A stretch of 32,000 bases of DNA from Candidatus Saccharimonadota bacterium (GCA_965229705.1 OZ245922.1:810001-842000), one strand, 5' to 3'; shown: positions 1-32,000, numbered from the stretch's first letter. Numbers and translations are program-made. The notes: generated by a model not told the origin, from the sequence alone.

Positions 1-1
1 A

Positions 2-1384
2 TGATCAGAGACCAGCATCGAAACTGCTGAAAATCTCACTATATCACCCGAAGTCATTCCACCTCATATACAATGATTTTATAATACTGGACTGCGAACT
101 ATTCTCTTTCTTGGTGGGTATGAGTGAGGAAATGTTGGTGAGAGTGAAACATTTTTAAAAAATTATTTTTATACTGAAAATCTCGCTCTTACAGACATGT
201 CAGCTCTCGAAGTCTCTGAAAGTCAAAACGAAACAACTCAAGAGGTATGAGAAAGTATGTATGAAGCATTTGAGCATCAAAGGGTTCGTGATATTCTTTC
301 TGTGAGTCTTTCATCTGAAAACCTCAAAAATATTATCAAACCTGCAGGAATGACAAATACCATACTTGCATCTAAAATGTGAATCGATACAGAGTCTGGT
401 ATACAACGTTTAGAAGAAATATATGAAATATCACAAAAAAACGGTTTTGACTACCGAGAGCTCCCTATTCATGAAATATCTCTTTTATATGCTTTTTCGG
501 CGCTTTGACCTGCTGCAGGGCTCAGTGAGACTCTCGCATGATGGGTATGAAACAGCGAATCATCTATAAATGAAGATGAGATTATCACGGCTCTTGCTAA
601 TAGTACCTACATAGACAACGACTTGAGCCGAGCTTTTTTAGAAACTGAAATAGCTCAAGGATGAAGATGACTTCTTGAATCCAGTGAAGATGCAAGAGTC
701 AAAGAACTTCTGATAGAGTATTTACAGCAAGAACAACTCAGTCAAGATCACCCAGCATTTCAGCAGATAGAGGAACTGATTTCATATAAAGATTTTGTAT
801 TAGAAGATCTGATAGAACAAGATATTTTTCAGCTCAATGAAGAAGAAAAAACTGCTATAAAGCAAGGTCTCAATTATGGGAAAATCACACTTCTCTATGA
901 GTCTCTTCATGGAAAAAAAGAAGTATGAGATGCGCAAATATTTAGTATCATTGCTCTTTTTGCCTCTATTTTACGATCACAAATAAATAATGAGGCAGCA
1001 ACAGAGTATTTTTGAAGATTTAGCAATATTAACTCTGCGTCAAATGTATTTACTGATAACCAGATACAGCTCATCTCCGCATATACAGAGTCTGTAAGTT
1101 TAGAGGCTTGGTCTCTACTTATCGATCAGGCTTTTGGGTGAGCGCGCATGATAAATGGCTATGTACAATGAGCAACGGGAGTTGACTCTACTATTGTTGG
1201 TGCTGGTTTAATGGGTAGTGCTGTTGCCTTATGAAGCGCGACAACAACGAGAAATTTTCAATGACAATTAGTTCCTAGGGCGTGAATATTGCCATCCGCC
1301 ATTCGAACAATAGCGCGTAAGGCATGATGAGTATGACTCGTACTTATAGGCCTTGATGCAATCACATACGCATCAGAGGAATAA
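2..1384 (+). CDS. hypothetical protein, 5'-truncated at the window edge, about 460 codons visible, Gly-rich hydrophobic C-terminus
   Basis: With TGA read as Gly, frame 2 has no TAA/TAG from nt 2 to the TAA at 1382-1384. It carries about 20 in-frame TGA. I recognise no family by eye. The last ~90 aa are Gly/Ala/Val/Ile-rich (..TIVGAGLMGSAVALG..LVLIGLDAI..). Confidence 0.55.
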
Positions 1385-1389
1385 ACAAA

Positions 1390-1474
1390 CTTTCAGGAAG
1401 CTCTGAGAAAGTCCTTTTTTCTCTCCTTTTACAAATGAGAGATGGCTCGATAGAGCCAGAGAGGATTAGAAAAT
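1390..1474 (+). repeat. MITE-like structured repeat, copy 1 (right terminal inverted repeat missing)
   Basis: ctttcaggaagctctgagaaag..ctctccttttacaaatgagagatggctcgatagagccagagaggattagaaaat aligns with the copies at 7543, 12218, 17598 (reverse orientation) and 20403. It starts 5 nt after the stop of the upstream gene. Confidence 0.8.
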
Positions 1475-1541
1475 CTACGAATACTATTGAGATAATTTTA
1501 AAGCAGTATACTATAATTATCTTTACTCACTCTCACTATAC

Positions 1542-2633
1542 ATGCACCTCTCAAACTTTGACTACCATCTCCCACCCGAACTCATAGCCCAATCAGCAGC
1601 TGAACCCCGAGACAGTTCACGACTCCTCTGTCTTGAGAGAACATCTTGAGAGATACAAGATGCTATTTTTTCTGATATTGCGGATAAACTCTCTGAAAAT
1701 GATGTCCTCGTAGTCAACGAAACTCGCGTCATCAAAGCTCGCCTAAAATGAAAAATATGATGAACAGGAAAAGATTGTGAAGTATTTCTCCATAAACAAA
1801 TCTCTGATAACTCCTGGGACTGTCTTGTGTATCCCGGAAAAAAACTCAAACCAGGAACGCAAGTAATTTTTCCTTTTTCGAGACTCACTCCCTCCAATTC
1901 CACCTTATGAAGTAGGGAAGAAATCATCAGCGAACAGGATGGATTTACTGCGAAAATAGAAAGTGTATCTGAAAAATGAAGAATCGTTTCCTTCTCCAAA
2001 TCATGAACAGATTTCTTTGATACTGTGGAAGAAATGGGAGAAGTTCCACTTCCTCCCTATATCCAAAACTCTTGATCTCCTGGAGAACGCTACCAAACAG
2101 TCTATCATGACAAGACAAAATCCTGAAGTGTTGCCGCGCCAACCGCAGGACTTCACTTTACCAAAAACCTTTTGGAAAAACTCAAAAAAAAATGAGTCAA
2201 AATAGAAAACGTCTGTCTACATGTATGACTCGGAACCTTTGCAAATGTAGAAGTCGAAAATATCCACGAACACCATATGCACTCTGAACAAGCATATATT
2301 GAAAAAGACGTTGCTCAAAGACTCAATCAGTACAAGCAACAATGACAACGCATCGTTGCCGTTGGAACGACTTCCGTGCGTACGCTCGAGAGTTTTGCTA
2401 ATGCAGACGGATATCTTGAATATGGACAAAAAGAGACAGATATATTTATTTATCCTGGTTATGAGTGGAAATTTGTTCAGAGTATTATCACGAATTTTCA
2501 TCTTCCCAAATCGACACTCCTAATGCTCGTATCAAGTTTTGCTGGAGACGAGAATAGAAAAAGAGCCTACAAACATGCCGTAGACTCAGAGTATAGATTT
2601 TTTAGTTTTGGTGATGCGATGTGGATATATTAA
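1542..2633 (+). CDS. queA: S-adenosylmethionine:tRNA ribosyltransferase-isomerase
   Basis: One frame is open under code 25 with 12 in-frame TGA. The translation shows QueA hallmarks: [17 protein letters not shown].., [55 protein letters not shown], and [10 protein letters not shown] at the end. Stop is TAA at 2631-2633. Confidence 0.92.
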
Positions 2634-3167
2634 CTATACTGCTCACTCACTCGTATCATTTCCCGCAAGAGTGAAACGCTTTTCTTTATATCTATCTGCC
2701 AGATTATTGAGATGACGAGACTTTTCCATAGGATGAGGAGAAAAAGTCATATCAAAATTATTTGTTGAACCCGCTGTTTCAATAGTAATTGTTCCATAAT
2801 CAAAAATATTTGCCAATATCCCCTTTGTCTCCACTCCCACCTCCTGTATCTTATCGAGGGTACATTCTCCGACTGTCCTATTGAGAAAAGATTTTTGCTC
2901 GACACATACCACACGATTATTAGTAACCACTATCAGATCAAGCTCATGATTGAGCCAATTGATATACAAAAACATCGAATAATACATCCAAAATATCACA
3001 TTGAGAAGCACGATAGGCGTAGTAAAACCAAAAATCCAAAGCAGAAACATACTCATCATCAAACCTCACAGAGCATATACTCCTAACATTACAAAGACAA
3101 TCCAATGCCGTCTGAGAACGGTATCAACTGTTTCTCCTGTTCGGAGATTTCGAAGTTTTACTGCCAT
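2634..3167 (-). CDS. membrane protein with bacterial PH domain (YdbS/YdbT-like, bPH_2/DUF304 type)
   Basis: Start is ATG at 3165-3167. N-terminus is MAVKLRNLRTGETVDTVLRRHWIVF.., followed by two hydrophobic helices. Then ..VVTNNRVVCVEQKSFLNRTV..ITIETAGS.., typical of bacterial PH-domain proteins. The track ORF 2643..3062 extends through TGA on both sides. True stop is TAG at 2634-2636, directly abutting the queA stop. Confidence 0.65.
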
Positions 3168-3177
3168 AAAAATGCGC

Positions 3178-3750
3178 TTAGTGAATATTTGGTTTTTTTA
3201 TATAGAGAGGACTGAGTCTCTTATCCTGTTTTGATTGAGCATTTCGCATATAATATTGAGCATCAATCTTACGGTGAAGAGTATATTTCTTTGTCCACCT
3301 CTCAACATCTATATCTCAAAAAATATCTTTCTCCTGAAAGTTTTGTTCAAAAACATCATTCTGCACTATCTCTATAGTATTATTTTTTCCATATTTTACA
3401 AATAAGTCTCGCTTTGAACTCGATTTTACGATCGGATACTCATCAAAAAGATCAAAGAAATTTACCGGTGTCAAAAAGATATTTGGGTATATATAAGCAA
3501 GAGTATTCACGATGAGAGAGACGGTTCGCACTCAGGTAAAACTCCCCGGTCACACCACACAAAAGATATTTTCTATCTGTTCATAGGAAACATTATTTTG
3601 AGAAAGAAACTGATGAATGATAGGTAAGAGCTGGCTACTCTCGTTTCCGAGAACAGCAAAAGTCTCCTCGCTTAACATATCTCGACTCGACGCGTCATAG
3701 AGTCATATATAGCCCTGAGAAGCAACTCCCTGTAAAAAAATATAATACAT
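3178..3750 (-). CDS. tsaB: tRNA threonylcarbamoyladenosine biosynthesis protein TsaB (YeaZ family)
   Basis: Translation is MYYIFLQGVASQGYIGLYD..VVGPGSFTGVRTVSLIVNTLAY... The GPGSFTG motif has two of its Gly encoded by TGA (3550-3552 and 3532-3534). The ORF continues through TGA at 3316-3318 to TAA at 3178-3180. Confidence 0.75.
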
Positions 3751-3830
3751 CTTGCGATATCAAAAATCTATACTAGTATGCTTGTGAAAATTATATATAT
3801 ATTCTCACAGAAACATACTTCTTTTTTCTT

Positions 3831-6842: not shown

Positions 6843-6885
6843 CATGCTACCATATTATTTTTCCCGGAAAGTGAAACATTTGTAC

Positions 6886-7461
6886 ATGAAAAACATACAT
6901 ATTATTCTGTGTCTTCTCTGCATCGCTGCTCTGACGAGTTGTAGTAGTGTAGATACAAAGACATGAGCAGAAAATCTTTCTGCGTGAGTTTCAGAAAACA
7001 ATATATCTCCTAATACAACACAAACTATGGCAAAAGAAGTAGTCAGTAGTGGCGACCAAGTAGAGGTTCATTATGTGGGAACACTGGAAAATGGTGAAGT
7101 ATTTGATAGTTCTCGAGACAGAGGACAAACACTTGGGTTTACTGTAGGAGCAGGTCAAATGATCTCTGGTTTTGATGCTGGAGTTGTGGGGATGAAGCTC
7201 TGAGAAACAAAGACGCTCACACTGAGTCCAAGTGAGGCGTATGGTGAGCGTGCTGATACAGCTCAGCAAACCGTCCCAAAAGCAGATCTTGCGAGTTTTA
7301 CTGCTGCAGGGTTTACTCTGGAGGTATGAGAGGAGCTTCCAACGCAGATGGGAAATTTCCCTATTATTGCTGCTGATGAAGAAACAATAACACTTGATAT
7401 GAATCATCCTCTTGCAGGAAAAACACTGATATTTGAGGTAGAGATTATAAAAATTCAATAA
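6886..7461 (+). CDS. SlyD-like FKBP-type peptidyl-prolyl cis-trans isomerase, predicted lipoprotein
   Basis: The N-terminus MKNIHIILCLLCIAALTSC has a lipobox-like signal. It is followed by VEVHYVGTLENGEVFDSS..GFTVGAGQMISGFDAGVVGMKLGE..DMNHPLAGKTLIFEVEI, an FKBP fold with an insert-in-flap segment. Stop is TAA at 7459-7461. Confidence 0.85.
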
Positions 7462-7542: not shown

Positions 7543-7652
7543 TTGAAGAAGACTCTGAGAAACTCATTCTTTCTCTCCTTTTACAAAAGAGAGATGGCTC
7601 GATAGAGAGAGAGAGGATTAGAAATTTTTTGTTTTTCAGAGCTTCCTGAAAG
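7543..7652 (+). repeat. MITE-like structured repeat, copy 2 (complete)
   Basis: Left end is ttgaagaagactctgagaaa. Right end is tttttcagagcttcctgaaag, which is its inverted complement type. The conserved core is ctctccttttacaaaagagagatggctcgatagag..agagaggattagaaatttt. It lies between two convergent terminators. Confidence 0.85.
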
Positions 7653-7751: not shown

Positions 7752-10700
7752 CTAGTCTTTATAATATTCTCCAAAATCGATAACATTCTCATTTGTTGAA
7801 GTGAATTCTTCACCAGTATCCACTGAACCATTACCATTCATATCAACAAAGAATGTAAATCCATTCTTTTTCACTCGTAACTCTTCATCAACTGCACCTA
7901 CCTTAAAGGTAAAAGAGTCACTGTTATTTATTTTTGCAAGAGCAAGATTAGCTGTAGTACTAATATCTACTGTTATGATATTATCACCCGTATCTGTAGT
8001 AGTTGTTACTGTATCATCATCATCGTTTCTTACATCCACAGAAGCTGTAAGTGCCTCTGCTGATACACTTGAGAGATATAGGTCATCGTCATCAAGTTCG
8101 TTTGATCCGAAGTTAACAGAGAATCTCGCTGTTGCATATTCATCATTTTCTCCGAGACTATCTGTGTTAGATACCGTAACGATAACTGGAACAATTTTGA
8201 TGGTTTCACTTGTTGTAGCAGCAACCGTAAGATTGTTATCTGCTGAGCTATAAGTGTCATCAGAGTCTGCTCCCTCTACATCAAGAGTTGCATCATCAAT
8301 AGAGATAGTAACATCTCCGAGTTGAGCTGTTACCTCATCTCCCTCAGTTGTATACTTTGCAAGATCTGCAACAAGGTTTGCCTCAATGAGATCGTCATCA
8401 TCAGAAACTGTGAAGTCTTCAAACTTGATCACTGTATTGTTTCCATCATATGTTACTACTCCTCCACTTGCGAGAGTTTTAGAACCACTCATGATTTTTA
8501 CATCACTGAAAGTATCAGAGAAATCTTCTCCACCAGATGATGTAACAATAGCGTTTGAGATAGTAAAATCAACACCTGCCTCAGCAGCAGTAATTTCGAT
8601 AACTCTTCATGATACTGTTGCAGTAGTAATACTATCAACAGCAGCAATAGCAGTAGCAAAAGCTGCAAGAGTTGTGTCATTATCTGTATCAAATGCTTGA
8701 GTGATACGAGTATCATCAATAGTCGCAGCTATTGTATGACCGTCTACAAGATCAGCATCAGTTGTAATAGTTTTTACTGCAGCAACTGTACCGCTAGCAT
8801 CAACTCCTGCTTGATTTGGAGTAACAGTACTTACTTCAATAGAAGATTCTTGACTTCCATTAAATGTTGGATTATTAAGAGTGAATCCTGTACCTTCTAC
8901 AGCAGCTGTTACCGTAATCTCTTCACCATCAACCTCTGCAGTAGCGATTCCAGCTTCACTCGCTATAGCTGTAGCAAAGTTTTCAAGACTTGATCCTGAA
9001 ACAGCATTTCCATCTACATCTATACCAAGTGTTCCTCCACTATGGAGATTGCTTGGAACAGTGATTTGCATTACTTGAGTTTGCCCCGCAGCTTCAGAAA
9101 CATTTTCAGTTGTTGTAGCAACTGTAACATTTACTGTACCTGCTGAAGCTCCACTTGGGATATTAAACTTGAGTGTTTTTACATCAGCATCTTCGTATTC
9201 TGCTTCCATCTCAAGTTGTGCAAGCACTACTGAGTTAGAACCTGCGAGAACAGTTGTTTCGAGGTCATCATCTGTATCATCTGCACCAAGAAGTTCTATA
9301 CTAAATTTTCCGTTTCCTCTAAGAGTTGTTGTAGTATTTTTTCCTCCAGAGATGTTATCAGTACTTACTGCTTCTCCATCAGAGTCTTCAAGAGTGATGT
9401 TTGATGAGATAAGTTGCATAATGAGAGTCTCGTTATCTCCAACACTATCATCATCTTGGAGTACTGCTGTTACGAGTAACTCTACATTATCAGATCCTGC
9501 AGCAACTACATGGTTGATAGAAGTAAAGTCTACAGAGTCTGCATCAATATCAGCGTCATATGTTTTTCCACCAATATTGAGTGTTGCAGAGTCAATCACA
9601 TCATCAAGGTCTACAGAAATAGTTGCGTCACCACTTTCAGTAAGGCTGAAGTCTTCGATAGTGACACTATCAGAGTCTCCTGTAGAAACTTTACCCTTAT
9701 AAAGCACTGTTTCCACACCATTTCCAAGAACAAGCTCTCTATCGTTGATAGATGTTTGAGAAAGCTCAAAAGAAGCTGTTTGTACATCTATAGATACATC
9801 ATCAAATGAATTTGTAGAAAGGATATCATCTACATCATTTGTTCCTCCGTCTGAGTAAGTGATGTTATTTTCATCATCTTCGATTTCAGTTACCTTTACT
9901 TGAAAAGTTACTGTTTTTCCATTGAGATCAACATCATTTACAACATCAAACTCAAGAGGAAGGACTTTTGTCACTCATTTTGCAAGAGCGATGTCCTCAA
10001 ATACATAGTCTGATCCGTCATTAGAGTCAAATGACTGACCACCAAGATGAAGGTCATCAACAGCATCAGTACCAGCAGTACCTCCAACTGTAACGGTAAT
10101 CTTTGTTACTTCATAGTCATTTGAGTTTGCTGTAAGTTCTAATGTTCCTACAAGTACATCACTCACGTCTACTTTTGTATCATCAATATCTGAGTGGTCA
10201 AATACTGCGTCGATTTCAGCTCCTTCAATAGTTTCAGGATCAGCAACATCAGCGTCTTCAGGAGAGTTACCATCAGTAAATCCAACATTAAATCCTGTAG
10301 AAAGACCTGTAGCATATACATCATCTATTCCTTCAAACTCAAAGTGAACATCTTCAGTAACATCACCAGAGATAACACCGTGAAGCTCAAACTCAACATC
10401 TTCGTCAGCTTCAAGTACATAGTCAATATTCATTACGAGTTCATCGTCAGAGTTGACCATCATACCTCTTTTAATAGTTTTTCCATCAGCTAAAAGAACA
10501 AGGTCTTCTATGTATTCAGCATCTACTGAACCATTTTGATGAAGAGTAATAGATCGGACAAGAACATCCTCATTATCATTTTTCTCTTCTATAGAGAACC
10601 CTGCAAGTTTTACTTCTTCTCCTATAGTAACAGTATCAGAAGCAGTGTCTGCATCTATTTCAAGTTTTGCAGAGTTAGCAACTTCTGTAGGAGTAAGAGC

Positions 10701-11825
10701 AGCACCTATGATACCACCACCTTCTACATCAGTACTTGCCTCAAGAGCTACAAGCTCGATTTGGTAAGTTGTATTTGTACTTCCAGTATCACTGATAGTT
10801 GCAGAAACAGTAAATGTTTGTGTTTCTCCAGCTTGAACAACTACATCTCTATCAAAAGAAAGATCAAGATCGTTGTCTGAGAAATTTTTTGTTTTTGATA
10901 CAGACTCATTTGATGAGTTATATATAGTAACATCATCAACATTGTCTTTATCACCAAGACCTACATGAAGGAATGTTGCTTCCTCAAGAGTGACATCTTC
11001 GCTTCCAGCAGTAACATCAAACGCGAGCATCGCAACACGAGGAGTGTTTACTGCAGCAAGTCCATTTGATGGAGACTGTGGAGAAAGAGAAACCATTGCG
11101 TTAGAACTTCCGAAGATTTGAGCAGCTTGTTCAGCTATCTCTTCAGCTACTTCTTCAGTAGCTTCTTCTTCATCCTCCATTTCTTCCTCAGCTACTTCTT
11201 CAGATCCGTCATCACAGATACCAAGAAGTTCACAAAGAGGGTCTTCAGCAACAGTGCTTGTTTCTTCTTCTTGAGCAACATTGAGAGCTTCAGCAGCCCA
11301 AATGAATACTTGCCCACGAGTAACATCAGTGTTATAATCAGAGAAAGAAGAAGTGATGCCAGCAGCAACTGCCCCATCAACTCTTGCAGCCATCCAATCA
11401 GAACCCTGTCCTGTAGCTATATCCTGTGCTTCCATAACCCATTTTAACGCTTCTATCTTAGAAGTGTTACTTTTTGGGTTGAAGTAGGTATTTGATGCAG
11501 CATATCCTGCACCATTAAGCGCTGCAGCATATTTTTCCGCCCAAGAAGCGAAATCAGCGTCAGCGTACACACTTTCAACATTGCTTACTGCAAGACCTCC
11601 AAGGTTTGCAATAACCTTTGAGAGCTCTTCTCTCGATATAGTGTCTCCAAGTCTGTAATCCGCAGGATTCGCAGAGTTGTCGACAATAAACCCGAGAACA
11701 GCGAGCTCGTTTGCTGCTTGCAAAGAAGTGTAAGCAGCTGATACTCCAGCTATTGGTGTAAACATAGAAAATACTATGGCTAAACCAGCAATAGCAGAAG
11801 TAACTTTTTTAGAAAAAGTACTCAT
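7752..11825 (-). CDS. giant SLH-domain, highly acidic S-layer / cell-surface protein (1357 aa)
   Basis: Track ORFs 9975..11864, 8607..9974 and 7752..8492 share one frame, joined by TGA at 9975-9977 and 8607-8609. The 8493-8606 gap has no stop. ATG 11823-11825 gives the signal peptide MSTFSKKVTSAIAGLAIVFSMFTPIAGVSA. Three SLH-like motifs follow (AANELAVLGFIV..DTISREELSKVIANL; FASWAEKYAAALNGAGY..; DWMAARVDGAVAAGI..TRGQVFIWAAEAL). Next comes an EEEMEDEEEATEE linker and about 1100 aa of D/E/T/S/V-rich beta-repeat-like sequence. Stop is TAG at 7752-7754. Confidence 0.85.
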
Positions 11826-12217: not shown

Positions 12218-12326
12218 CTTGAGCAGGCTCTGAGAAACTCTTTTTCTCTCTCCTTTTGCAAAGAAAAGATAGCTCGATAGAGCCAGAGAGGTTGAGAAAT
12301 TTTTCTCTTTTTCAGAGTCTTCTTAA
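12218..12326 (+). repeat. MITE-like structured repeat, copy 3 (complete)
   Basis: Sequence is cttgagcaggctctgagaaactc..ctctccttttgcaaagaaaagatagctcgatagagccagagaggttgagaaattttt..tttttcagagtcttcttaa. It sits 28 nt downstream of the brnA stop and upstream of the S-layer gene. Confidence 0.85.
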
Positions 12327-12993: not shown

Positions 12994-14163
12994 CTACGAA
13001 TTCGTCACACTATCAGCAAGATTCATAATTGGTTGCATGATTGCCATAGCGATAAATCCCACTACCACCGCTAAAAATATGATAATAAAAGGTTCTAAAA
13101 GCTTGTTCATCGTACTAGCAAGAGTATCCACCTGATCATCATAAAAATCCGCTACCTTGGTAATCGTCATATCGAGTTTTGCCGACTGTTCTCCAACCTG
13201 CACCATTTGTATCATGATATTAGGAAAGAGGGGATCTCCCTCGAGTGATTCCCATATCTTCATTCCGCGTCGAACATCCTCTAGTAAGAGCAAGATTCTT
13301 TGGCGATAAACCTCATTTCATACAGCATCAGCAACAATCCTCAAAGACTCTACTACCGAAACTCCCGAACCCATGAGTCCCGCAAATACGCGAGAAAATT
13401 TTGAGAGTGTTACCTTTTGTACTACTCCTCAAAACACTGGAAGTTTTAAAAGTATGAGATCAAAATTGTATTTTCATGAAGGTGTTTTTTTCCAAAATAT
13501 CACGGCAAAATACAGAAGAAAAAGAAATATCAAGATAAAATGCCAATAATTCACAAATATATTTGAAGCTCCTATAAGAAACTGTGTTGTCGCTGGAAGT
13601 TCCGAAGCATCATCAAATATTTCTAAAAGTTTTGGTACCACCATAGTCATCATCACAAAAATCACTCCTGTTACCACTACCATAATCATGAGAGGATAAA
13701 TCAGTGCTGCCTTGAGTTTTCCTGTAACAGAAGAAACTTTTTCTACCTGATCAGCGAGAGAGATCATCACTTCATTGAGTCTTCCTGTTTTTTCTCCTGC
13801 TCGAATCACTCACAGTTCCGCATCACTAAAACTTCCCGCATATACCTCCATACACTCTGAAAGCGTTTTTCCCTCTTTGATTCCCGCAAGCATCTCTCAC
13901 AGCATTCTCTGAAATACTGGATTTTTTTCTTGATCTTCCAGGACAGAAAGACTTTTCATAATACTCATTCAGGCATTGAGCATGGTTGCCATGAGTCGAT
14001 AAAATAACAGTTTTTCTTTGGTCTTGATTTTTTGAAAAGAATAAAGGAGCTCATTGAGTCTCGCATAAAGACTGGGAGCGTTTTCTTGAGATTTTTCATC
14101 TTTTGTGTGAAGACTTTGTGAAGACTTTTTTTCATCTTCGGCAAGTATGATCAGATCTTCCAT
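12994..14163 (-). CDS. pilC: type IV pilus / type II secretion platform protein (GspF/PilC family)
   Basis: Track fragments 13969..14163, 13474..13809 and 12994..13293 are in one frame. The gaps were checked codon by codon and contain only TGA. Two GspF-type repeats are present (..AGMSIMKSLSVL..IRAGEKTGRLNEVM.. and ..AGLMGSGVSVVESLRIV..VQVGEQSAKLDMTI..), plus three membrane helices. Stop is TAG at 12994-12996. Confidence 0.88.
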
Positions 14164-14181
14164 GATTCTCAGAGTTAAAAA

Positions 14182-15453
14182 TTATTCTTCGTTTTGTGTT
14201 TTTGACACTCGATATACTTCTTCGAGTGTAGTGACTCATTGCAGTGCTTTGATGATTCCGTCTTGTTCGAGAGATATCATACCATCTTTGATTGCCTGTC
14301 TATTAATATTGAATGCTGAGTCTCATCGCAATATCATTTCTTTGACTCCTGGAGTTATCTCAAGAACTTCGTATAGCCCTAGACGCCCTTTGTATCCGAT
14401 ATTATCACACTTTTCGCAGCCCGTTGCGCGGAAAAGTTCTGGAGACTTGAGCTTGTCGACTCATACCCGAGACTCTAGCTCTTTTTTTGGGGTCAGTCCG
14501 AGAGAATTTTTCATATTTTTGAGCGTCTCTGGATCAATATCTGATAAAGGCAAAGGAGCCTTACAGTCTTCACATAGTCGCTTAATAAGTCTCTGAGCTA
14601 TCACGACATTGAGTGAAGCAGGTATCAAAAACGCCTGCACTCACATATTGAGTATTCTCGTAATAGTCTCTGAGGCGTTATTGGTATGTATAGTAGACAG
14701 TACAAGATGCCCTGTCAACGATGCCTCAATCGCGATATCAACCGTCTCCTTATCACGCATTTCTCATACCATGATAATATCAGGGTCTTGTCTGAGAGCT
14801 GTTCTCAGACCATAAGCAAAACTGTATCCTATATCTGGTTTTACCTGGCTCTGCACAATTCCGTCTACCTGATTTTCGACAGGATCTTCGAGCGTCATGA
14901 TGTTCACTCTTGGATTATTTAGCAGGGTCAAGACTGAGTAGAGCGTCGTTGATTTTCCTGAACCTGTTGGACCACTGGTGAGTATGACTCCATTTGGGAG
15001 AGCGATAGCTTTTTTGAGGAGTTCGAGATTTCTTCACTCTATCCCGAGATTTGCGAGCTCTGGGATCTTTTTACTCTTATCTACGATACGCATTACCATC
15101 TTTTCACCGTGTACCGTTGGCAGTGAAGAGACGCGCAGATCAAGGGGTTTTCCGTCTATATTTTGGCTGATTCTTCCGTCTTGAGGAATACGAGACTCGT
15201 CTATCTTTAGCTCCGAAAGGATCTTAAAACGCGCAACTACACCGGGATGAATAAATGACTGGTACTCAAGTATTTCTCTCAGTTCTCCGTCAATACGATA
15301 ACGCAAACGCACATAGTTTGTAAGAGGCTCTACATGTATGTCTGACGCGTCACCTAAAACTGCTGCGAGAATAATGAGATCACAAATCTTTTGTATATTA
15401 TCTCATTTATATACGAGATTTTTTAGCTCTTCGAGAGTGGTGTTATAGTCCAT
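14182..15453 (-). CDS. pilB: type IV pilus assembly ATPase (GspE/PilB family, short form of 423 aa)
   Basis: Motifs seen: [21 protein letters not shown], Walker [37 protein letters not shown], and [13 protein letters not shown] tetracysteine CEDC..CEKC motif is typical of assembly ATPases. The long N-terminal GSPII_E_N domain is absent. Stop is TAA at 14182-14184. Confidence 0.88.
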
Positions 15454-15462
15454 AGAGTGTTG

Positions 15463-16698
15463 TTATTGGAGTAAGAGTTGTATTTCTTCAAGAGCCGTTC
15501 TCTGACGATCAAGAACTCCTTGTAAGTCAAAAGCTGTATCAAACGTTGATTCTATATCTTCTTTCTTCACAAAGTTTTTACGCAAGGCTTTCATGTCTCC
15601 CTCCAAAGCTTCTATCAAACTTTCTAAAGAAGCCAGTTTTCATACTGCTCGAAGTTGTTCACCGTTGGTGTATTGTGAAAGGTTTTTTTGATATGTATTA
15701 TGAGCTATTTTTATATCTTTTCGAAGCTTCTCAAAATCCGTGAGAGACTTGAGTATTAGCTCTTCCATCTGATATCCAGGGATACCAGAAACATAAAAAA
15801 TCAGAGATACATCTATACTCATCCTCTCGCTTGCCTGTGATCTTTTTAGTACAGATACGAGAGGAAGGTTTTGTGAAACACTTGAAGAGTCTGGGTATTT
15901 GAGCATTCATAGGGAAGTGATTTCTCAAAAATGCCCTTTATATACATTCTCAGAGTTTTCTCATATCTTTTTTCTGTTTAAAAATGCGTCCTCATGCAAT
16001 ACTAGATCTTCTCAGAGTACATTGATACTTCAAACATTTTCAAAATAATGGAGAAAGTCGATGATGTCTGTTTTTCTTCCGGAGAGAGAAAATTTTAAAG
16101 GAATCTGAAATATATTTTCTGAGAGACTTGAACTATTTTGAAATCCTTCTCTGTCTATATTTTCTATATTTCCTACTCCTATTTCTCCGTCAAAATTGAG
16201 ATTAAAACTGTAGAGGATTTGCTCTATATAATTGGTAAAATCAAAGTTACTCAACTGCGTTTTTTCTCTTTGTGAAGATACAGAATAATATGGGAGAATC
16301 TTGTTAAGTGTCGTATTTTTTTGTGTATACTCATAAGAATTTTTTGTTTCCTGAACACTGCGAGACACGCCATCAAGAAACTCTTCATAGCTGCCTGATC
16401 CAGTGTTGCTAAAGTGCTCATGAAAAAAGTCTTTTTCCAGAACTGATACAAGCTTTTTCTCATATACATCTTGCGTATTTTGCTGCATAAAAGACAGATA
16501 CGCGTCATAGTCTATTCACTGTTTTTTCAGATCTTGAGAGTATGTATAGAGTTCTTGAAAATCTGTTTTGTGCGACTCTATCTCTGATATTTTTGGAAAA
16601 ACAAGTATGAAAAACATTCCTAAAAATACGATACATATCACTGTATTGATAGCCATTGACTGTATAAGAGAGGATTTCGTTTGTGGAGAGAGTTTCAT
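15463..16698 (-). CDS. hypothetical single-pass membrane protein of the pilus operon (411 aa; PilO/PilN-like by position and topology only)
   Basis: Track ORFs 16516..16698, 16030..16488 and 15640..15906 are in one frame, joined by TGA at 16516, 16030, 15907 and 15640 plus others. There is an N-terminal TM helix (AINTVICIVFLGMFFILVFP) and a coiled-coil-like C-terminus. Stop is TAA at 15463-15465, 9 nt before the pilB start. Confidence 0.65.
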
Positions 16699-16711
16699 CT
16701 TTTTGTAAAGG

Positions 16712-17560
16712 TTACAATGCTAAATCGTGAGAAATATACTCCAGCTCCAGCTGGAAACTTGTCTTTTGTGTATAGGGCGATTTTTGACTCTGGCTATAGC
16801 TAAGGTTTTCTGTTTTTGAAAGAAGAATAAATGGTGAATCATCTGCATTTTCAATATAATCCATAAAAGCGCTCGCTCTTGTAATAGAGCTTCCCTCAAA
16901 GTTATAGAGTAATACCCCATTTTTTAGTCCAGCAATGGCCGTATCCCAGTCTGAAGAATAGGCATCACAGCTGATACGCATCTTAGTACTGTCAAAAAAC
17001 TCTATGTCATAGCATTGGAGCTCGCTTTTATCAACCGGTGAATAGGTGTTTTTTAAGGTATCAAACTCCTGAAGTATTGTGAGTGGGCGCATTCTTTCTG
17101 CTGATCGTTCGAGGAGAAAGAGTACTTTTTTTGAAGAGTGAAAGTTTTCTAAGCCATATAGTTCTGAAAGGATGGGAGTAATGTTTGATCCCTGAGTATT
17201 TTTTTGTATTTCTATATTGTTCAAAACTTCTTGGCGTGATCCATAGAGGTTATGACATGATCATCCTGCATACTTTTCATATACATCTCATAGAAATACC
17301 TGGCAAAAAGGAGAGAGAAAGTTATAGGTCTTTTTTTCTTCTTGGGTTTGAATGAATATATATGTATACGCAAAGAGAAGTGTGAGAAGTAATATAATAT
17401 TCAGTGAAGTAAAAAATCTGCTACTATAACTGAGATAGTCATACAGTTTTTCTTCTTTTGAGGGGTTTTGTATATCTTCTTCTCACTGATCTTGCTGAAA
17501 ATCATCAAATATATTTTCCGCATGAATATCATTTTTTGGAGAATTTTCTTCTGAAAGCAT
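16712..17560 (-). CDS. hypothetical single-pass membrane protein, first gene of the pilus operon (282 aa)
   Basis: Start is ATG at 17558-17560. The N-terminus is acidic (MLSEENSPKNDIHAENIFDDFQQDQGEEDIQNP). One TM helix follows (FFTSLNIILLLTLLFAYTYIFI), then an extracytoplasmic domain that corresponds to track ORF 16712..17224. Stop is TAA at 16712-16714. Confidence 0.65.
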
Positions 17561-17756: not shown

Positions 17757-20381
17757 TTATGAGCCATCTCCTCATAAAACTCACAGTAAACTTTCAGCAG
17801 CTCCAGAGCGTATCTTGATACCTTTAGGAAAGGCGTCATAAAAGGCTCTTCACCAGTCTGAGTGCAATATTCTACTATCCAGAAAAATAATAACCCCTGT
17901 ATCTTCTGGTGTTCGAACCAGTCGTCAAAATCACTGCTTGAGTTTCAAAATTGCTTTAGGAATAGAATAGTCATAAAAAGCGTTTTTATACAGTGTTGAT
18001 CGCGCCTGAAAAATAGGATCTGTTGGTACAGGAAAAGGGATTTTATGTACCACGAGATAACGCAAATCAGATCAAGGAATATCTACTCACTCCCAAAAAG
18101 TATCTGTTCCAAGAAGAATAGAGTTATGTGAAGATTTTCTAAAAATTTGAATTTGTTTATGCTTACTCCCACTAATACTTTGAGCAAGTAGGTGTATATC
18201 TTCGTCTTGCATTTTTCGCTTGAGCTGCGAGTAGATGTCTTGTATTGCCGAGAAAGCCGTAAACAACACGAGCATATTTCCCTTCGTAGCGAGGAAAAGT
18301 TTTTCTAAGAATACGGTAATTTGTGGAAGATTATTTTTGATACTTCACAAATCATTAGGGATATATAAAAGTGCTTGTTTTTCATAATCAAATACTCCAT
18401 CAAGAGCAAATTCTTGAAACCCATCGAGCGCCAAAGTCTTTCGAATATAATCAAAACTTCCCTGCATCTGAAGCGTGGCACTTGTAAGAGCCACGCTTTC
18501 ACACTCCTTCCACAGATATTCTTTGAGAAAATCTCATGGATGTAGAAGTGTGAAAACCAGCTCTGTTCATCGGGTATCGTTGTGCTGAAGGATGTAAATA
18601 TATTTTTCTGGATTCCAAGATGGAAAAAAGAGTTGTAAAAAATCGGATATATACTGAATATCTTGAAAAAAATTATAGAGTTTCTTCACATATTCTTCAC
18701 CTAAATCTTCACATACAGAACAAAGTTCCTGCAATTTGGTAATCATATTTTTTGCAAGAAGTGTGAGTTTTTCTTCCTTTTGGAAAAAATCTTCCTGAAG
18801 CAGGAGGTTCTTATATTTTGCATCAAGAGAGAACTTCTCAAATATTTTTCCTTCACAAAAAGAAAATATCTCAGCGCTTTGGAAGAGAATTTGCGACTTG
18901 AGTATTCAAAAGTTAGTATCTGTCTGCTTGGCAGCGAGTAAGATATTTTCTCATTTTTCTAGTGTTTTTTGTATATACTCATGACTGAGTACTTTCTTCA
19001 TTGCGGAAGTGATCACGTCTTCGAGATTATGGGCCTCATCTATCACTATATTTTTTACTCATCATAGTAAACTCCCTTCTGAAACAATATCCTGAAAAAG
19101 GATACTATTATTTGTTACAACGATATTTGCATTTTTGGCGCTATTTCTTACCCATAGAGCATACTCCCAGTGTCGGTATATATTGTCATTGTCATATATA
19201 TCTATATTTCCTGCATGTATCTGCGAGAGAAAACTATACTCTTCTCCATAAAACTCCAGCTCATCGAGCTCTCCGTACCGTGTTTCCAAAGACCAGAACA
19301 ATATCTTCATAATAAAAGAGATTTTGCTATCTTGCAGGTCTTGAAGAAAGACGGTAAAGGCTGTGAGAGAGAAATAGTTTCTCTTCCCTTTGAGCTTACT
19401 GTAGGAAAAATCATAGCCGCTGTTTTCTTGGAGATAGCTCAAATCTTTATAAAATACCTGATCTTGTAAGGCTTTGGTATTGGTTGAAATGTGCACTGTT
19501 TCTCACATATTGAGACTCCATACGATTGAGGGGATGAGATAGGCGTAGGTCTTTCCTATTCCTGTTGGAGCTTCGATCAGCACTTGCTCTCATTTTGAGA
19601 GATTTTTGTCTACTATGTCAAGCATCGTTTTTTGCCCATATCTGAGGGAAAAAGACGCAATACTTTCTACAAATTCTTTCGCGTTTACTCACTCTTTATG
19701 CAGGAAAGTGTCTATTTTTTCAGGAAAGTTTTGCTGATAATCTTGTATATATTTTTTTAAAAAATCTTCGGTTCACCAGGTCTGTGTTTTCTCTGATTTG
19801 AGATAGGTATCATAAAAAATTTGCATCCCAGTATTATTTGCCTGTTGCAAAAAATAAGAAAGATATTGCTGGTGTTCTTGTGGAAGATTTTGTATAATAT
19901 TCACAAGTTTCATAAAAAGTTCTGCCGTTGCGAGTGTATCGTCTATCGCTCTGTGAGCATCTGCAAGGTGTATCTCCAAGTATTCACATAAATACCCGAG
20001 GTTCAGTGATCATTTTCCTCTGATTAAAAAATTTGCCAGAAAAAAAGTATCTATCACGGCATTTTTTGAGGTATTGATTCCGTGTGATTCTAAAAAACTG
20101 ATATCAAAAGGAATATTGTGCCCGATAAGAGGAGCGTTTTCGATAAAATCTTGTATATCATCTCGCATATCAGTAAAGCGTGGTGCTCAGGCAAGATCAC
20201 TATCAAATATTCCTGTAATCTGAGATATGAGGGATGGTACTTCTCTTTCGGGGTTGATATAACTATGTAGTCTCCCTATCTCTTTTCATGATTGTGGATC
20301 TATCTTGATAAAGGCGCATTCTATAATCGCATCTTTTCGAGGTGAGAGTCCCGTCGTTTCGAGATCAAGTACAATAAACAT
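17757..20381 (-). CDS. dinG: DinG-family ATP-dependent helicase with N-terminal DnaQ-like 3'-5' exonuclease domain (874 aa)
   Basis: I checked the gaps between the track fragments (17757-18086, 18276-19061, 19497-19772 and 19980-20381) codon by codon and found no TAA/TAG. N-terminus: MFIVLDLETTGLSP (Exo I), LIGHNIPFDISFL (Exo II), HRAIDDTLATAELF (Exo III). Helicase motif I is EAPTGIGKTYAYLIPS. DEAH box is VIDEAHNLED. C-terminus is LLGTDTFWEGVDIPG..LKQGFGRLVR. Stop is TAA at 17757-17759. Confidence 0.88.
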
Positions 20382-25087: not shown

Positions 25088-25188
25088 AAAAAGACATAAA
25101 AAAAGTATGAAGTAGTATCTTAATCGAAAAAGAGATTATTCAAGTTTTTGATGGAGAGAGTATTGAATATATCGAGTTTCTGAGTATC

Positions 25189-25884: not shown

Positions 25885-25901
25885 AAGATATACTTTATCA
25901 G

Positions 25902-26597: not shown

Positions 26598-28004
26598 TTA
26601 GAAATTTTTTATAATCTCTGAAAGACTCTCTACACCAAAACCTGTCATTCATTTTGGCATTTTCCCATAGGCATCTCCCTCATTGATATACGCTCCTGCG
26701 ATATCAATATGTGTATATTTTTCATTATTTTCTAAAAAATTTGAAAGAAATGCCGCTCACATAGAAGATCCGGCATAAACTGATCTATCAAGATTTTTAT
26801 AATCTGCTATTTCTGATTGTGTCTTTTCGATAAAGTGATCATCAAAAGGAAGTTCTATATATTTTTCTGTGTGGTTTTGAGAATATTTCAGCAGAGCATC
26901 TAAGAGTTTTCTATCCGTCCCCATCATCCCCGCATAACGAAAACCAAGAGCCACCATCACTGCGCCGGTAAGTGTCGCAAGAGTGATAAGTCTTTCGGTG
27001 TGATAGTGTTTCCCGAGATAACTCATACCATCAGCAAGAACTAGTCGTCATTCAGCGTCTGTGTGTATCACTTCTACAGTTTTTCCATTATACGCCTTGA
27101 GTATATCTGAGGGTTTATACGATGATGATGAAACACTATTTTCTGCAAGACAAAGACAGGCAACAATATTTTTGTCTATATTGTGTCTATCAAGTTCTTT
27201 CATCACTGCGTAGGTTACAGCCGCTCATCACATATCTCCTTTCATATCATACATGGCGTCTCCTGGCTTTATTTGGTTTCCTCCTGTATCAAAAGTCACT
27301 CCTTTTCCCACAAGAGCTAGGCAAGGCTTTTTCTTGTCTACTATATGCTCTAAAATTACCATACAGGGAGCATTTTTACTCCCCTTTCCTACAGCCTCTA
27401 TCAGTCATAGTCCTTTCTTTTGGATATCTTTATAGGAGAGGATTTTTACCTTTGTATGCTGAAACTTTGTTTTTTTCACTTTTTTTGCAAATACCTCTGG
27501 CGTGAGATCACAAGCCGGTGTTTCTCAAAGATTTCTTGCAAGGATAATATTTTCAAGAGTTTGAAGGTGATCTGCAAAATCTTTTTTCCATTTTATATCT
27601 CAAAGAATTTCTAGTACATATTCCTTCTTCTGACTTTTATATTCCTGAAACACATACCCAGAAAGATAGGTTGTTTCAAAGAGAGTTTTGAGTTGCTCTT
27701 TTTTTTCTGCGTAGAGAGCTATTTTTTCGGTTTTTTTTGAGAGATATTTTCCATAAAAAAGGACTTTTTTTTCATAACTTGTTTCTGGCGTGTAGAGAAA
27801 GAGTACTTCTTGACACTGTTTTTTTCATATAAAGTACTTTTGTGCACAGGCTTGTTTTTTTGTTATTTTTTTTGAGAAGTCTTGGAGAATTTCTTGAGAA
27901 AATCAAAATTTTTTCCAAGACGCAATATCTTTTTTTGATTCTCAAACGAGCACAAAAAGTGACGATCTCAGTTGTGAAAAAGAGTCTCTATAGTGATATT
28001 TCAT
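26598..28004 (-). CDS. pepA: leucyl aminopeptidase (M17 family)
   Basis: Motifs seen: LVGKGVTFDTGGNQIKPG, MKGDMGGAA, and HTDAEGRLVLAD (the Gly is TGA). GSSMGAAFL follows. Start is ATG at 28002-28004. Stop is TAA at 26598-26600, 3 nt before the comFC start. Confidence 0.88.
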
Positions 28005-28122: not shown

Positions 28123-29493
28123 CTATAAATTTACCTGAAAAAACACCCAAACAATAACAAAAAATGAAAGAGAACCTATACAAGAAAAGTAATTCTTACA
28201 TGAAGAAAACACATAATACAAAACAATAGAAAAAAGAATATAACGAAACATTTCTCCAGATATATCAAAGTGTACCAGCTCAAACACTTCTAGGGTGTGT
28301 ATGGTGAGAAAAAACATGCAAAATATACATAGAGCCATGTAGAGAACTTTCGCGGTAAAAAAAGAACTTTGCTGTATATTTTCTCTTACTTTTATTATTC
28401 ATTTTTTCGCGCTGGTATAAGAAGACACTCTTCCCATTTTTTTTGCTGAAAGAAGCGAAATATTTTGCTGCAGAACCTTTCTCTTAATAAAAAACTTTTC
28501 TTTTTCCTCTGTTTTTATAAAAGGAGAAAAATATACGAAAGGATTTCTATATATTTGCTTTGTATTTTCTTTGAGTTTTTTCTTATAGGTATTGAGAAGA
28601 AGGACGGTTTTGAGATAGCTGTAAGAGTGTGTATCTATCTTTTCTCCAGCTTTTTTCTGCTGAGCTGCATCTTGCCTTGAAGCGTCTTTTTTTTGAGAGA
28701 AGCTTTGAAAAAACTGAGAAATAGTATCTATAAATATCTTTTTATAATCTTTTGAAGGATCGAGAAAATACTTTGAAGAACCAAATTCTTTTAGGAGATT
28801 ATTGGTTTCTGAAAGAAAATCTTTTGCGTGGCGTATTTTTTGATCTTGAAGCATCTGGACTTCTATTTCTCCTATTTTTGAGAGTGCAAGCTCGCTTATT
28901 TCTTGAAGTTTTATAATATTTGAGGATCACTTCATGTGAATAAGTTTTTCATAAACCTGCTCAAGCTTTTCTCTCTTGGTTTGAGAAATATTATTGGTAT
29001 TTGCAAGAAGAGATTCTATTTTTTTTATAACCTTCTCTACTCACTGAGAGGTTTTTTGAAGTTGTTTTTGAGCATAAAACTGTTCAGAAGCTTGTTGTTC
29101 TTGTTTTTTTGAGACTTGTTTCTCTTGTTGGAGTTTGTATCCTATTTCGAGTTTTGAGAGTATTTCTTCTCGTTTTTTTGCGTCCAGTTTTTCACTGTCT
29201 TTTTCTGGATAGAGAGACAGAACTCTGTATTCGAGTTCTCTACGGAGTTTAATATATACTTTTAAAATATCATCTCAAAATATTGCTCCTGACTGAATTA
29301 CTCCATCCTTTTCTACCTGAAATAAAAACTTTTTTCACGATATCTGTGAGTCATCTACCCCACTAATACTCAAGACACTATAACCGTCTTTATGAAGTTT
29401 TTCTTTTGCTTCATACTCTGAAGTAGTAGAAACGATAATAGTATACTTTTTCTGAGACTTTGTAGCGCTGATTTTGTATTTTTGTATTGGCAT
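28123..29493 (-). CDS. hypothetical coiled-coil protein with C-terminal membrane helices (456 aa)
   Basis: Track ORFs 28399..28854 and 28123..28338 join through TGA at 28399-28401. The frame stays open up to ATG 29491-29493, preceded by an in-frame TAA at 29521. The N-terminal ~45 aa are MPIQKYKISATKSQKKYTIIVSTTSEYEAKEKLHKDGYSVLSI. A long K/E/Q-rich helical region follows. The C-terminus has two or three hydrophobic helices. Stop is TAG at 28123-28125. Confidence 0.65.
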
Positions 29494-30301: not shown

Positions 30302-31570
30302 ATGCAAGAGTGAAAAAATAGAGTTTTTCTGAATTTTATCATTGTTTTGACATCTTTTTTGCTGGGATTGTGAATTTCTCATATATTCTATACACAGAAA
30401 CTGGCACATAAAGATATCGAGACTCGATTTTTAGGAACTTCCTACAATCTTGATATGCAAGAGTTTTGGGATGTATATCAGCTGATATGAGATGAGTTTT
30501 TTTCTCAAGATGGCGTGAAGAAACAAGACCTTGTATATGGCGCAATAGAGTGAATGGTTGCAGCTCTATGAGATGAACATAGTGAGTTTTTTTCTCCAAG
30601 TGCGACAGAAAAGTTTCATACTTCGCTCTCATGAGATTTTGAGGGAATAGGAGCCGTAGTAGAGAAAGTTCCTCTTTGAGTAAAAATTGAAAGAATTTTC
30701 AAAGGTTCTCCCGCAAAAAAATATGGACTCTTTTCCGGAGACATCCTGATCTCTGCAAATGGTGAGAGTCTGGTAGGCCTCGATATATTTGATGCGGTTG
30801 AAAAGATCAAAGGACCTGCAGGAAGTGAGGTGATTTTAGAGATACTGAGAGTATGAGAAAGTGATATTATAGAGCGAACGGTTGTGCGGGATAAGATACA
30901 TATTCCTTCGGTAGAAATAGAAGAAATATGAGAAGATGTTCTCTATATTTCTCTTAATATGTTTGGTGACTCAAGTGTGGAAGAGTTTTGAGAAGCAATT
31001 TCTTTGGCAATATCTTCACAAAAACAAGGACTTATTATTGATCTTAGAGATAATGGCTGATGATATCTCGACAGCGCTGTAAGTATTTTGTCATATTTTA
31101 TAGATACTGGAGAAGTACTGGTAGAGACAAGATATAGAAAATCTTTTCTTGGAAAGACCTATACTTCACAAAAGAATGATCAAAAATATACCGGAAAAAT
31201 AGTTGTACTCATCAATAGAAACTCTGCGAGTGCTTCTGAAATAGTTGCTTGAGCACTCAGAGAGTATCACAAGGCAATTCTTGTAGGAGAAAAAAGTTTT
31301 GGAAAAGGGTCAGTCCAAGAGGCATACAATCTCGTTTCTCAGAGTCTGTTAAAACTTACGGTTGCTCAGTGGTTCACTCCTCAAGGGAAAAACATCGAAG
31401 ATGAGGGAATACAGCCAGATATAGAAGTATTTTTTGAGTGAGAGGATTTTGAAAATGACTATGATAGACAGCTAGAGGAGGCAAAAAAAGTTCTTCGTAT
31501 GTTTCAGGTAGAAAACACTCTTTGACTTACTTTGGAGAAATATCATGAGGAGAATAGTAAAGAAGAGTAA
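30302..31570 (+). CDS. ctpA: C-terminal processing peptidase (S41 family) with PDZ domain
   Basis: The signal-anchor N-terminus is MQEGKNRVFLNFIIVLTSFLLGLGI. Then GDFEGIGAVV, a PDZ segment (GSPAKKYGLFSGDILISANGES), DLRDNGGGYL (two Gly are TGA), NRNSASASEIVAGAL, and GEKSFGKGSVQ. Stop is TAA at 31568-31570. Confidence 0.88.
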
Positions 31571-31600
31571 TTTTTGAGGGGTAAGAAAGTTCTGAGTATG

Positions 31601-31631
31601 AACACCGGGCTGTAGCCCGGTGTTGTTTTTT
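31601..31631 (+). terminator. rho-independent terminator after ctpA
   Basis: A 10-bp GC-rich stem pairs aacaccgggc (31601-31610) with gcccggtgtt (31615-31624). The loop is tgta. It is followed by gtttttt. Confidence 0.85.
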
Positions 31632-31685
31632 GCGTGTTTGGAGGAAATCATAAGAAAAAAGATTCAAAATATCAGTCACAAAAAA

Positions 31686-31713
31686 TTGCATCCTTTATCT
31701 ATTCCTATACAAT
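31686..31713 (+). promoter_or_regulatory. candidate sigma70-type promoter of the glyA leader
   Basis: TTGCAT (31686-31691), a 16-nt spacer, then TACAAT (31708-31713). This is a consensus match only. Confidence 0.4.
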
Positions 31714-31730
31714 ACACGGAGTTATACATT

Positions 31731-31778
31731 ATGGAAAAAATATGAACTACCTCTATACAACAAAGCTTGTACTCTTAG
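31731..31778 (+). promoter_or_regulatory. 15-codon leader uORF (MEKIGTTSIQQSLYS) upstream of glyA
   Basis: ATG 31731 is preceded by GGAG (31718-21) at 9-nt spacing. It is the only clear Shine-Dalgarno-like motif I found at any start in the window. Codon 5 is TGA (Gly in code 25). Stop TAG at 31776-31778 overlaps a segment complementary to the downstream terminator arm. Confidence 0.35.
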
Positions 31779-31797
31779 GATAATACCATACTCCCTT

Positions 31798-31841
31798 TCT
31801 CTATCCTGTTAGAAATACTGCTATCAGGATGGAGATTTTTT
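31798..31841 (+). terminator. intrinsic terminator / attenuator hairpin 27 nt upstream of the glyA start codon
   Basis: An 11-bp stem pairs tctctatcctg (31798-31808) with caggatggaga (31825-31835), including one G-U pair. The loop is 16 nt. It is followed by tttttt (31836-31841). Confidence 0.6.
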
Positions 31842-31867
31842 ATATATTATTTTTTTATATTTTCCCT

Positions 31868-32000
31868 ATGAACTATTATAATCAATTCCAACATCTCCAA
31901 AAAACAGACCCCGAACTCTTCTGACTCATACAACAAGAAACCGAGAGGCAAGAAAGCTCTCTCGAACTCATACCCAGCGAATGCGTTGCGAGTCTCGCAA
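31868..32000 (+). CDS. glyA: serine hydroxymethyltransferase, 3'-truncated at the window edge
   Basis: MNYYNQFQHLQKTDPELFGLIQQETERQESSLELIPSECVASLA matches the SHMT N-terminus (DPE...E..RQ...LELI.SEN..S). One Gly is encoded by TGA. Confidence 0.8.

Follow-up and report, generated by a model that had tools for sequence, protein, structure and literature searches.

UGA is read as glycine in a 32-kb segment of a probable Gracilibacteria genome and is depleted in a giant S-layer-type gene

We analysed a stretch of 32,000 nucleotides (OZ245922.1:810001-842000, assembly GCA_965229705.1, labelled Candidatus Saccharimonadota bacterium; hereafter the window, meaning the whole of this stretch) and find that UGA in this genome is a glycine codon, a reading that we regard as almost certain. 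This is NCBI translation table 25; the code is already known and the genome is already public. UGA serves here as a sense codon for glycine, and translation ends at UAA and UAG only. TGA is used as a second-class glycine codon, supplying 37 % of glycines in the ordinary genes of the window and 2 % in a giant S-layer-type gene. An earlier note on this DNA had proposed glycine decoding throughout, and the analysis reported here followed up its claims.

The window has a G+C content of 36.5 %, and its TGA trinucleotides outnumber TAA or TAG roughly twofold. With all three stop codons in force the longest open reading frames (ORFs) comprised 633 and 455 aa. When only TAA and TAG were treated as stops, ORFs of 1374, 1021, 964 and 878 aa emerged, and lifting either TAA or TAG as a stop instead produced no such lengthening. 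TAA/TAG-only stops yielded around 22 genes, with 87 % of the window coding. Under table 11, in-frame coding (fragments of at least 60 aa) fell to 35 % of the window and the longest callable UvrA ORF covered 15 % of the protein, confirming the prediction that table 11 shatters these genes. Across the 9,240 codons of the 19 main genes we counted 198 in-frame TGA codons, equal to 2.1 % of all codons, and no TAA or TAG. These genes terminate in TAA (14) or TAG (5) and never in TGA, as the earlier note had said of the genes it reconstructed, although this is partly true by construction given that the ORFs were defined by those stops. Independent support for TAA and TAG as real gene ends came from alignments to solved structures, which reach the C-termini of the proteins (UvrA 941/948, QueA 362/363, PepA 466/468 and MurB 348/348). 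Family identities were established with TGA masked as X, and the X-masked long ORFs were full-length members of unrelated families. The genes referred to most often below were as follows.

1542..2633 (+): queA, 363 codons, 12 TGA, ends TAA; Pfam PF02547 at 408.7 bits; aligned to PDB 1vky
3178..3816 (-): tsaB-like gene, 6 TGA, of which the GPGSFTG motif contains two, ends TAA
3831..6842 (+): mfd, 1003 codons, 21 TGA, Walker A glycine encoded by TGA, ends TAA; TIGR00580
21255..22301 (-): murB, 11 TGA, ends TAA
22241..25087 (-): uvrA, 948 codons, 33 TGA, both LSGGE signatures written LS-TGA-TGA-E, ends TAA
26598..28004 (-): pepA, M17 leucyl aminopeptidase, 11 TGA including that of HTDAEx, ends TAA
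30302..31570 (+): ctpA/prc, S41 C-terminal processing protease, 15 TGA including those of DLRDNGxx, ends TAA

The earlier note had located TGA at invariant glycines in several of these families, and all of its coordinates were exact on the sequence. Both UvrA signatures, at 23597-23611(-) and 22577-22591(-), read CTT TCA TGA TGA GAG (L-S-x-x-E), whilst TGA lies at 5271-5273(+) inside V-G-F-x-K-T-E, the Mfd Walker A motif, and at 3550-3552(-) and 3532-3534(-) inside V-x-P-G-S-F-T-x-V of TsaB. The x positions of HTDAEx in PepA (27048-27065(-)) and of DLRDNGxx in CtpA (31040-31063(+)) are likewise TGA, the TGA-bearing QueA motif was located at 2124-2162(+), and the queA tally is exactly 12 TGA in 363 codons. 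TsaB was the weakest family call, with 25.7 bits in Pfam against a cutoff of 24.8 and 51 bits for TIGR03725, below its cutoff of 69.

If the standard code applied, the TGAs would be premature stops arising from genome decay or sequencing error and the genes would be pseudogenes; each gene does look fragmented under table 11. Such an origin is difficult to reconcile with 198 in-frame TGA against zero TAA or TAG, and no frameshifts were seen. Full-length, high-scoring matches run across the TGAs, for example the UvrA match to NF001503 (1238.7 bits), which spans 940 residues, and TGA or GGN occupies the same columns in 13 related genomes. Random decay would not target conserved glycines. We give the pseudogene explanation virtually no credence.

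The ORF structure is the same under tables 4 and 25, so ORFs alone cannot separate glycine from tryptophan, the residue assigned to UGA in code 4 as used by the Mycoplasmatales and several insect endosymbionts. Nine X-masked proteins of unrelated families were aligned to PDB chains and the alignments tabulated by script. PDB sequences are those of real expressed proteins, hence no translation-table artefact enters this test. Glycine occupied 69 of the 117 aligned TGA columns and tryptophan none, with the rest spread over 14 other residues; relative to a background glycine frequency of 7.1 % the excess is highly significant (P≈3e-48). As a control from the same alignments, GGN codons of the window were opposite glycine in 142 of 207 columns. 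Its genuine TGG codons were opposite aromatic or hydrophobic residues and never glycine.

Codon-level comparison of uvrA led to the same assignment. UvrA was used to scan species-representative genomes, which gave 80 uvrA loci, and 45 were extracted for alignment, comprising 13 with 6-70 in-frame TGA and 32 with none. At the 33 uvrA TGA columns of the window, the 32 non-recoding organisms carried glycine in 842 of 991 non-gap cells (85 %); 22 of the 33 columns were at least 90 % glycine and none displayed a conserved tryptophan. The 13 TGA-using relatives carried TGA 147 times, GGN 221 times and TGG six times at these columns, and this alternation of TGA with GGN is the signature of synonymous exchange. 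When every TGA codon in the 14 recoded uvrA genes was considered, outgroup cells were 77.9 % glycine and 0.45 % tryptophan. A Codetta-style check limited to uvrA columns with at least 80 % conservation placed 25 of 25 TGA codons on glycine. Glycine and tryptophan translations of five proteins were also scored against curated NCBIfam models, with the following results.

UvrA, NF001503: 1238.7 bits with glycine, 1127.2 with tryptophan, +111.5 for glycine; cutoff 1147
Mfd, TIGR00580: 748.0 bits with glycine, 704.5 with tryptophan, +43.5 for glycine
QueA, NF001140: 447.4 bits with glycine, 420.3 with tryptophan, +27.1 for glycine
PepA, NF002073: 349.9 bits with glycine, 323.1 with tryptophan, +26.8 for glycine
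CtpA, TIGR00225: 296.9 bits with glycine, 271.0 with tryptophan, +25.9 for glycine

The summed advantage of glycine over the five models was approximately 235 bits, and the tryptophan version of UvrA fell under the curated NCBIfam cutoff. Tryptophan decoding does find some apparent support beyond the shared ORF structure, in that the public collection's own UvrA has tryptophan at all 33 TGA positions and one uvrA column alternates between TGA and TGG. Code 4 also resembles the present case in the codon captured, the effect on ORF calling, a low G+C content and the loss of release factor 2 as proposed driver. It differs in the amino acid, given that the TGA columns here are glycine and never tryptophan in the solved-structure homologues. 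A tryptophan reading would cost 26-111 bits per protein and would ruin the Walker A and ABC-signature glycines, and we consider it extremely improbable. Selenocysteine was considered as a further candidate and rejected. It too involves read-through of in-frame UGA, but selenocysteine sites are rare, occur at Cys/Sec positions and need a selenocysteine insertion sequence (SECIS) element, whereas TGA is far too frequent in the window and no cysteine was found at any of the 117 TGA columns. A scan of the window against Rfam returned no RNA family at gathering thresholds, SECIS included.

Some observations weigh against glycine decoding. Approximately 40 % of TGA columns in the pairwise PDB alignments are not glycine; since around 31 % of the window's GGN columns are likewise non-glycine, this mismatch reflects ordinary divergence. 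Residue 315 of UvrA (PPxFG, ~24143-24145(-)) is the sole TGA column with a tryptophan signal. Recoded relatives have TGA (6), TGG (6) or GGA (1) at this site and outgroups have N, W or L, with tryptophan in 8 of 32. The PDB alignment places glycine there and tryptophan at the next residue, so the signal is likely due to alignment slippage beside the adjacent aromatic residue, a local tryptophan reading being less probable. A tRNA scan of the 32-kb window found no tRNA gene, and tRNA(UCA) was not found in 16 related Gracilibacteria/Patescibacteria loci, in which the only tRNAs were Arg(CCU), Val(UAC), Lys(UUU) and Glu(CUC). We infer the decoding mechanism from the literature on this lineage. 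In that mechanism a dedicated tRNA-Gly with anticodon UCA would decode UGA, and loss of release factor 2 (prfB) would mean that UGA is no longer read as a stop. The low G+C content of the window fits the usual route of codon capture, whereby UGA first dwindles as a stop and is captured thereafter. The decoder to be expected is tRNA-Gly(UCA), whose identity elements have been described (G1:C72, C2:G71, G3:C70, U73) (PMC8629427), and prfB was detected in no available BD1-5 genome (Sieber 2019, PMC6851277).

The tryptophan-bearing UvrA mentioned above is entry P0001 of the public protein collection, in which table 4 was evidently applied to this contig and to most contigs of related Gracilibacteria. 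Among the 120 closest UvrA homologues in the collection (P0001-P0120), 101 contained more than 0.6 % tryptophan, compared with none of the NCBI-named UvrA. The high-tryptophan homologues display LSGWE or LSWWE for LSGGE, forms that occur in none of the NCBI-named (table 25) copies. In a residue test, the close homologues would have been confounded by these table-4 translations. Their tryptophan richness matches a table-4-or-11 coding-density heuristic that has been described (gTranslate preprint). The earlier note had anticipated that any table-11 annotation of the contig would call most genes pseudogenes or fragments. Fragmentation under table 11 is real, as shown above, but the collection actually used table 4, so that the damage takes the form of full-length mistranslated proteins.

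Candidatus Gracilibacteria account for all of the nearest uvrA loci (72-75 % identity) and for all of the nearest named proteins (~64 %), with standard-code Firmicutes next in UvrA similarity at ~50 %. This similarity ranking agrees with the earlier placement among the UGA-Gly lineages and supports identification of the genome as that of a putative BD1-5-type Gracilibacterium (Patescibacteria/Candidate Phyla Radiation, CPR) with plain code 25. The source contig is 1,006,762 bp long. A size of ~1.0 Mb is typical of genomes in the Gracilibacteria group. Code 25 in BD1-5/Gracilibacteria was reportedly described by Rinke in 2013. Proteomics supported UGA as glycine in a BD1-5 bacterium (Hanke 2014, PMC4032931), and Codetta inferred the same in 13 of 15 Gracilibacteria species (PMC8629427). 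The window resembles code 25 (Candidate Division SR1 and Gracilibacteria) as known in Gracilibacteria in its in-frame UGA-Gly codons alternating with GGN, in UAA and UAG as sole terminators, and in the ~1 Mb contig, low G+C content and nearest relatives labelled Gracilibacteria. Large surface proteins and genes for type IV pili, which have been reported for the group (PMC11452946), are further points in common. Nothing essential differs, and the species is not among the scanned GTDB species representatives, the best uvrA match being 75 %.

Absconditabacteria (SR1), a sister lineage, likewise read UGA as glycine and have a low G+C content. They are predicted to have an additional CGA/CGG-to-Trp reassignment, and CGG-to-Trp has been predicted in some Gracilibacteria (Shulgina and Eddy 2021, PMC8629427). 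In contrast, CGA is fairly common in the window (60 codons, or 65 per 10^4 codons, in the 19 main genes) and sits on conserved arginine in eight of nine uvrA columns. CGG is rare, with only 12 codons, three of which were opposite arginine where alignable (RluF 204 and 206; CtpA 196) and none opposite tryptophan, a sample too small for a firm assignment. Retention of the arginine meaning of CGA argues against recoding of the Absconditabacteria type, and no Absconditabacteria-labelled sequences were found among the closest relatives. Table-25 organisms are now placed in GTDB class JAEDAM01, orders BD1-5 and Absconditabacterales, and the NCBI label 'Gracilibacteria' also covers table-11 genomes (gTranslate preprint). 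Three loci from our scan, L006 (JAQTLR010000004.1), L017 and L030, are labelled Candidatus Gracilibacteria or Peribacteria, have uvrA genes without in-frame TGA and apparently use the standard code; L006 in particular fits the published mixing of table-25 and table-11 genomes under 'Gracilibacteria'.

Stop-codon recoding also occurs in some phages of CPR and gut bacteria. The window might accordingly be thought to derive from a recoded phage or mobile element and not from a cellular chromosome, and related context exists on recoded phages in PMC10746230. Its content is housekeeping in nature (uvrA, mfd, murB, queA, tsaB, pepA, ctpA and genes of pilus biogenesis), and hallmark genes of phages are absent from it. 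Its source contig is ~1.0 Mb, and several Gracilibacteria metagenome-assembled genomes have uvrA on one contig with the S-layer-type gene. A phage origin is vanishingly improbable on these grounds.

Use of TGA was strikingly uneven between genes. The S-layer-type gene at 7752..11825 (-), which encodes a giant acidic surface protein, probably of the S-layer-homology (SLH) family (1357 aa, ends TAG), has TGA at 2 of its 102 glycine codons, whereas the 18 remaining genes together have it at 196 of 533 (Fisher P=1.3e-15). Its NNT/NNA codon bias is strongly intensified as well, with a third-position G+C (GC3) of 0.20. We identified 82 homologues of the protein, all in this clade, of which 37 have a PF00395 SLH domain or an NCBI SLH name; the N-terminus of the window protein itself scored 15.4 bits against Pfam PF00395, under the cutoff of 20.8. 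The tryptophan content of table-4 translations served as a proxy for TGA in the homologues. Median tryptophan was 0.36 % in SLH homologues versus 2.8 % in UvrA homologues (Mann-Whitney P=6e-16). In ten same-contig pairs, W/(W+G) was 0.03-0.05 for the SLH proteins (0.23 in one pair) versus 0.17-0.76 for UvrA, the tenth UvrA being a table-25 translation that scores 0 and is uninformative; pairing was inferred from equal-sized contigs and is direct in relative L009 only. In L009 (25 % GC), counted from DNA, the TGA share was 37 % in the SLH gene (985-4620(+)) versus 86 % in uvrA (P=5e-11).

These data lead us to lean slightly towards the view that, throughout Gracilibacteria, translational selection acts on UGA-Gly as a second-class codon and has almost purged it from the S-layer-type gene, which is presumably very highly expressed; high expression is an assumption here. 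A shallow search of the searchable literature found no prior report of UGA-Gly avoidance. Another explanation is that UGA is ambiguous or context-dependent, being read mostly as glycine with appreciable misreading, either as tryptophan via near-cognate tRNA-Trp or through residual termination. Such ambiguity would be costly and would explain avoidance by the most highly expressed gene. The ~18-fold TGA depletion in the S-layer-type gene is consistent with this, as is the depletion of its homologues relative to UvrA on the same contigs, including that in L009. Potential U34 wobble ambiguity between UGA-Gly and UGG-Trp has been raised for these lineages (PMC8629427), and three peptides unique to a UGA-Trp database were reported from a BD1-5 proteome (PMC4032931). 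However, low abundance of tRNA-Gly(UCA), or slow decoding by it, could explain the depletion equally well without misreading, and no observation in this organism shows ambiguity directly. TGA is moreover freely used for glycines that are essential to catalysis (Walker A, ABC signature), which argues that decoding is accurate enough. We consider ambiguous decoding very unlikely.

The remaining genes of the window were as follows.

2..1384 (+): hypothetical protein, runs off the window start, 20 TGA, ends TAA
2634..3167 (-): membrane protein with bacterial PH domain (PF03703/PF14470), 2 TGA, ends TAG
6844..7461 (+): FKBP-type peptidyl-prolyl isomerase lipoprotein, 4 TGA, ends TAA
12355-12711 (-): CopG-type antitoxin, Pfam 31.9 bits against a cutoff of 28
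12659-12949 (-): BrnT/DUF4258-like toxin, sub-threshold
12994-14163 (-): PilC/GspF, type IV pilus / type II secretion-like cluster
14182-15453 (-): PilB/GspE ATPase, same cluster
15463-16698 and 16712-17560 (-): two hypothetical proteins, same cluster
17757..20381 (-): DinG-type 3'-5' exonuclease-helicase, 874 codons, 21 TGA, ends TAA
20404..21237 (-): RluB/RluF-type pseudouridine synthase, 10 TGA, ends TAA
25902..26594 (-): ComF/GntX-family phosphoribosyltransferase, 5 TGA, ends TAG
28123..29493 (-): hypothetical membrane / coiled-coil protein, 5 TGA, ends TAG

TGA provides 53 % of the glycine codons of the first hypothetical protein (2..1384), for which family profile searches found no match, and the pilus / type II secretion-like cluster (12994..17560 (-)) contains 23 in-frame TGA altogether. 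In the ~800 bp between uvrA and comF (25088-25901, 33 % GC) a convincing gene was found in no frame under either code. An ORF at 25189-26196(-) (335 aa, 15 TGA) was rejected as a gene, having no family match and an unnatural Cys-rich composition and overlapping comF. The CopG-type antitoxin and BrnT-like genes overlap each other within an otherwise empty 1.1-kb gap (11.9-13.0 kb) and, judged from sequence, probably form a toxin-antitoxin pair of type II. No TGA occurs in the toxin gene, and the antitoxin gene contains one or none according to which start codon is used. The uvrA and SLH genes share a contig in at least ten related genomes (e.g. P0125/P0026, P0130/P0023 and P0134/P0030) and lie within ~6 kb of each other in L009, which suggests that their neighbourhood linkage is conserved.

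A perfect, in-frame 15-bp tandem duplication is present in uvrA at 23786-23815(-), where two copies of TGATGAAAAAATATA encode GGKNI-GGKNI and consist largely of TGA codons. One GGKNI copy constitutes a five-residue insertion found in none of the 45 other aligned uvrA genes, and the duplication is probably a recent replication-slippage event. The window also carries five copies of a dispersed palindromic repeat of ~100 nt.

1391-1498 (+): repeat copy
7543-7650 (+): repeat copy
12218-12325 (+): repeat copy
17584-17674 (-): repeat copy
20403-20510 (+): repeat copy

The copies share 70-94 % identity, are intergenic or at gene ends and occur in both orientations relative to their neighbours; the 26-nt repeat core gave five matches where none was expected by chance. 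Their layout is nested and palindromic, with an outer stem (CTCTGAGAAA/TTTTTCAGAG) enclosing the hairpins CTCTCCTTT/AAAGGAGAG and GGCTC-GATA-GAGCC. A structured RNA was considered and rejected: RNAalifold predicted nested hairpins, but there were no compensatory changes and the covariation term was unfavourable. The repeat was found in none of 80 related loci and had no Rfam match. The single match in a metagenome scan was to an unrelated contig (L081) of ~50 % GC with table-11 ORFs and no tRNA, and was dismissed as chance. The repeat thus looks like a genome-specific element resembling repetitive extragenic palindromic (REP) sequences or miniature inverted-repeat transposable elements (MITEs). 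The last ~35 codons of the RluB-like gene (20404-20510(-)) come from one repeat copy, and RluF homology stops at residue 241 of the 277-residue pseudouridine synthase; insertion of the repeat seems to have lengthened the protein at its C-terminus, or to have supplied a substitute C-terminus, as far as the next TAA.

The biology of UGA as glycine adds nothing new here, and Codetta and gTranslate detect code 25 routinely; the value of the result is practical. Any downstream reading of the window requires table 25. Table 4 yields full-length proteins in which tryptophan replaces up to ~6 % of residues and the Walker A and ABC signatures are corrupted, and any alignment, hidden Markov model, structure prediction or language-model training set built from such translations carries the systematic Gly-to-Trp error over for this clade. 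The TGA depletion in the S-layer-type gene offers a modest, testable lead on the decoding efficiency of a reassigned stop codon. If UGA-Gly is indeed a second-class codon in Gracilibacteria, decoding by tRNA-Gly(UCA) would be slower, scarcer or more error-prone than decoding of GGN, and the reassignment would be complete in meaning yet not equal in efficiency.

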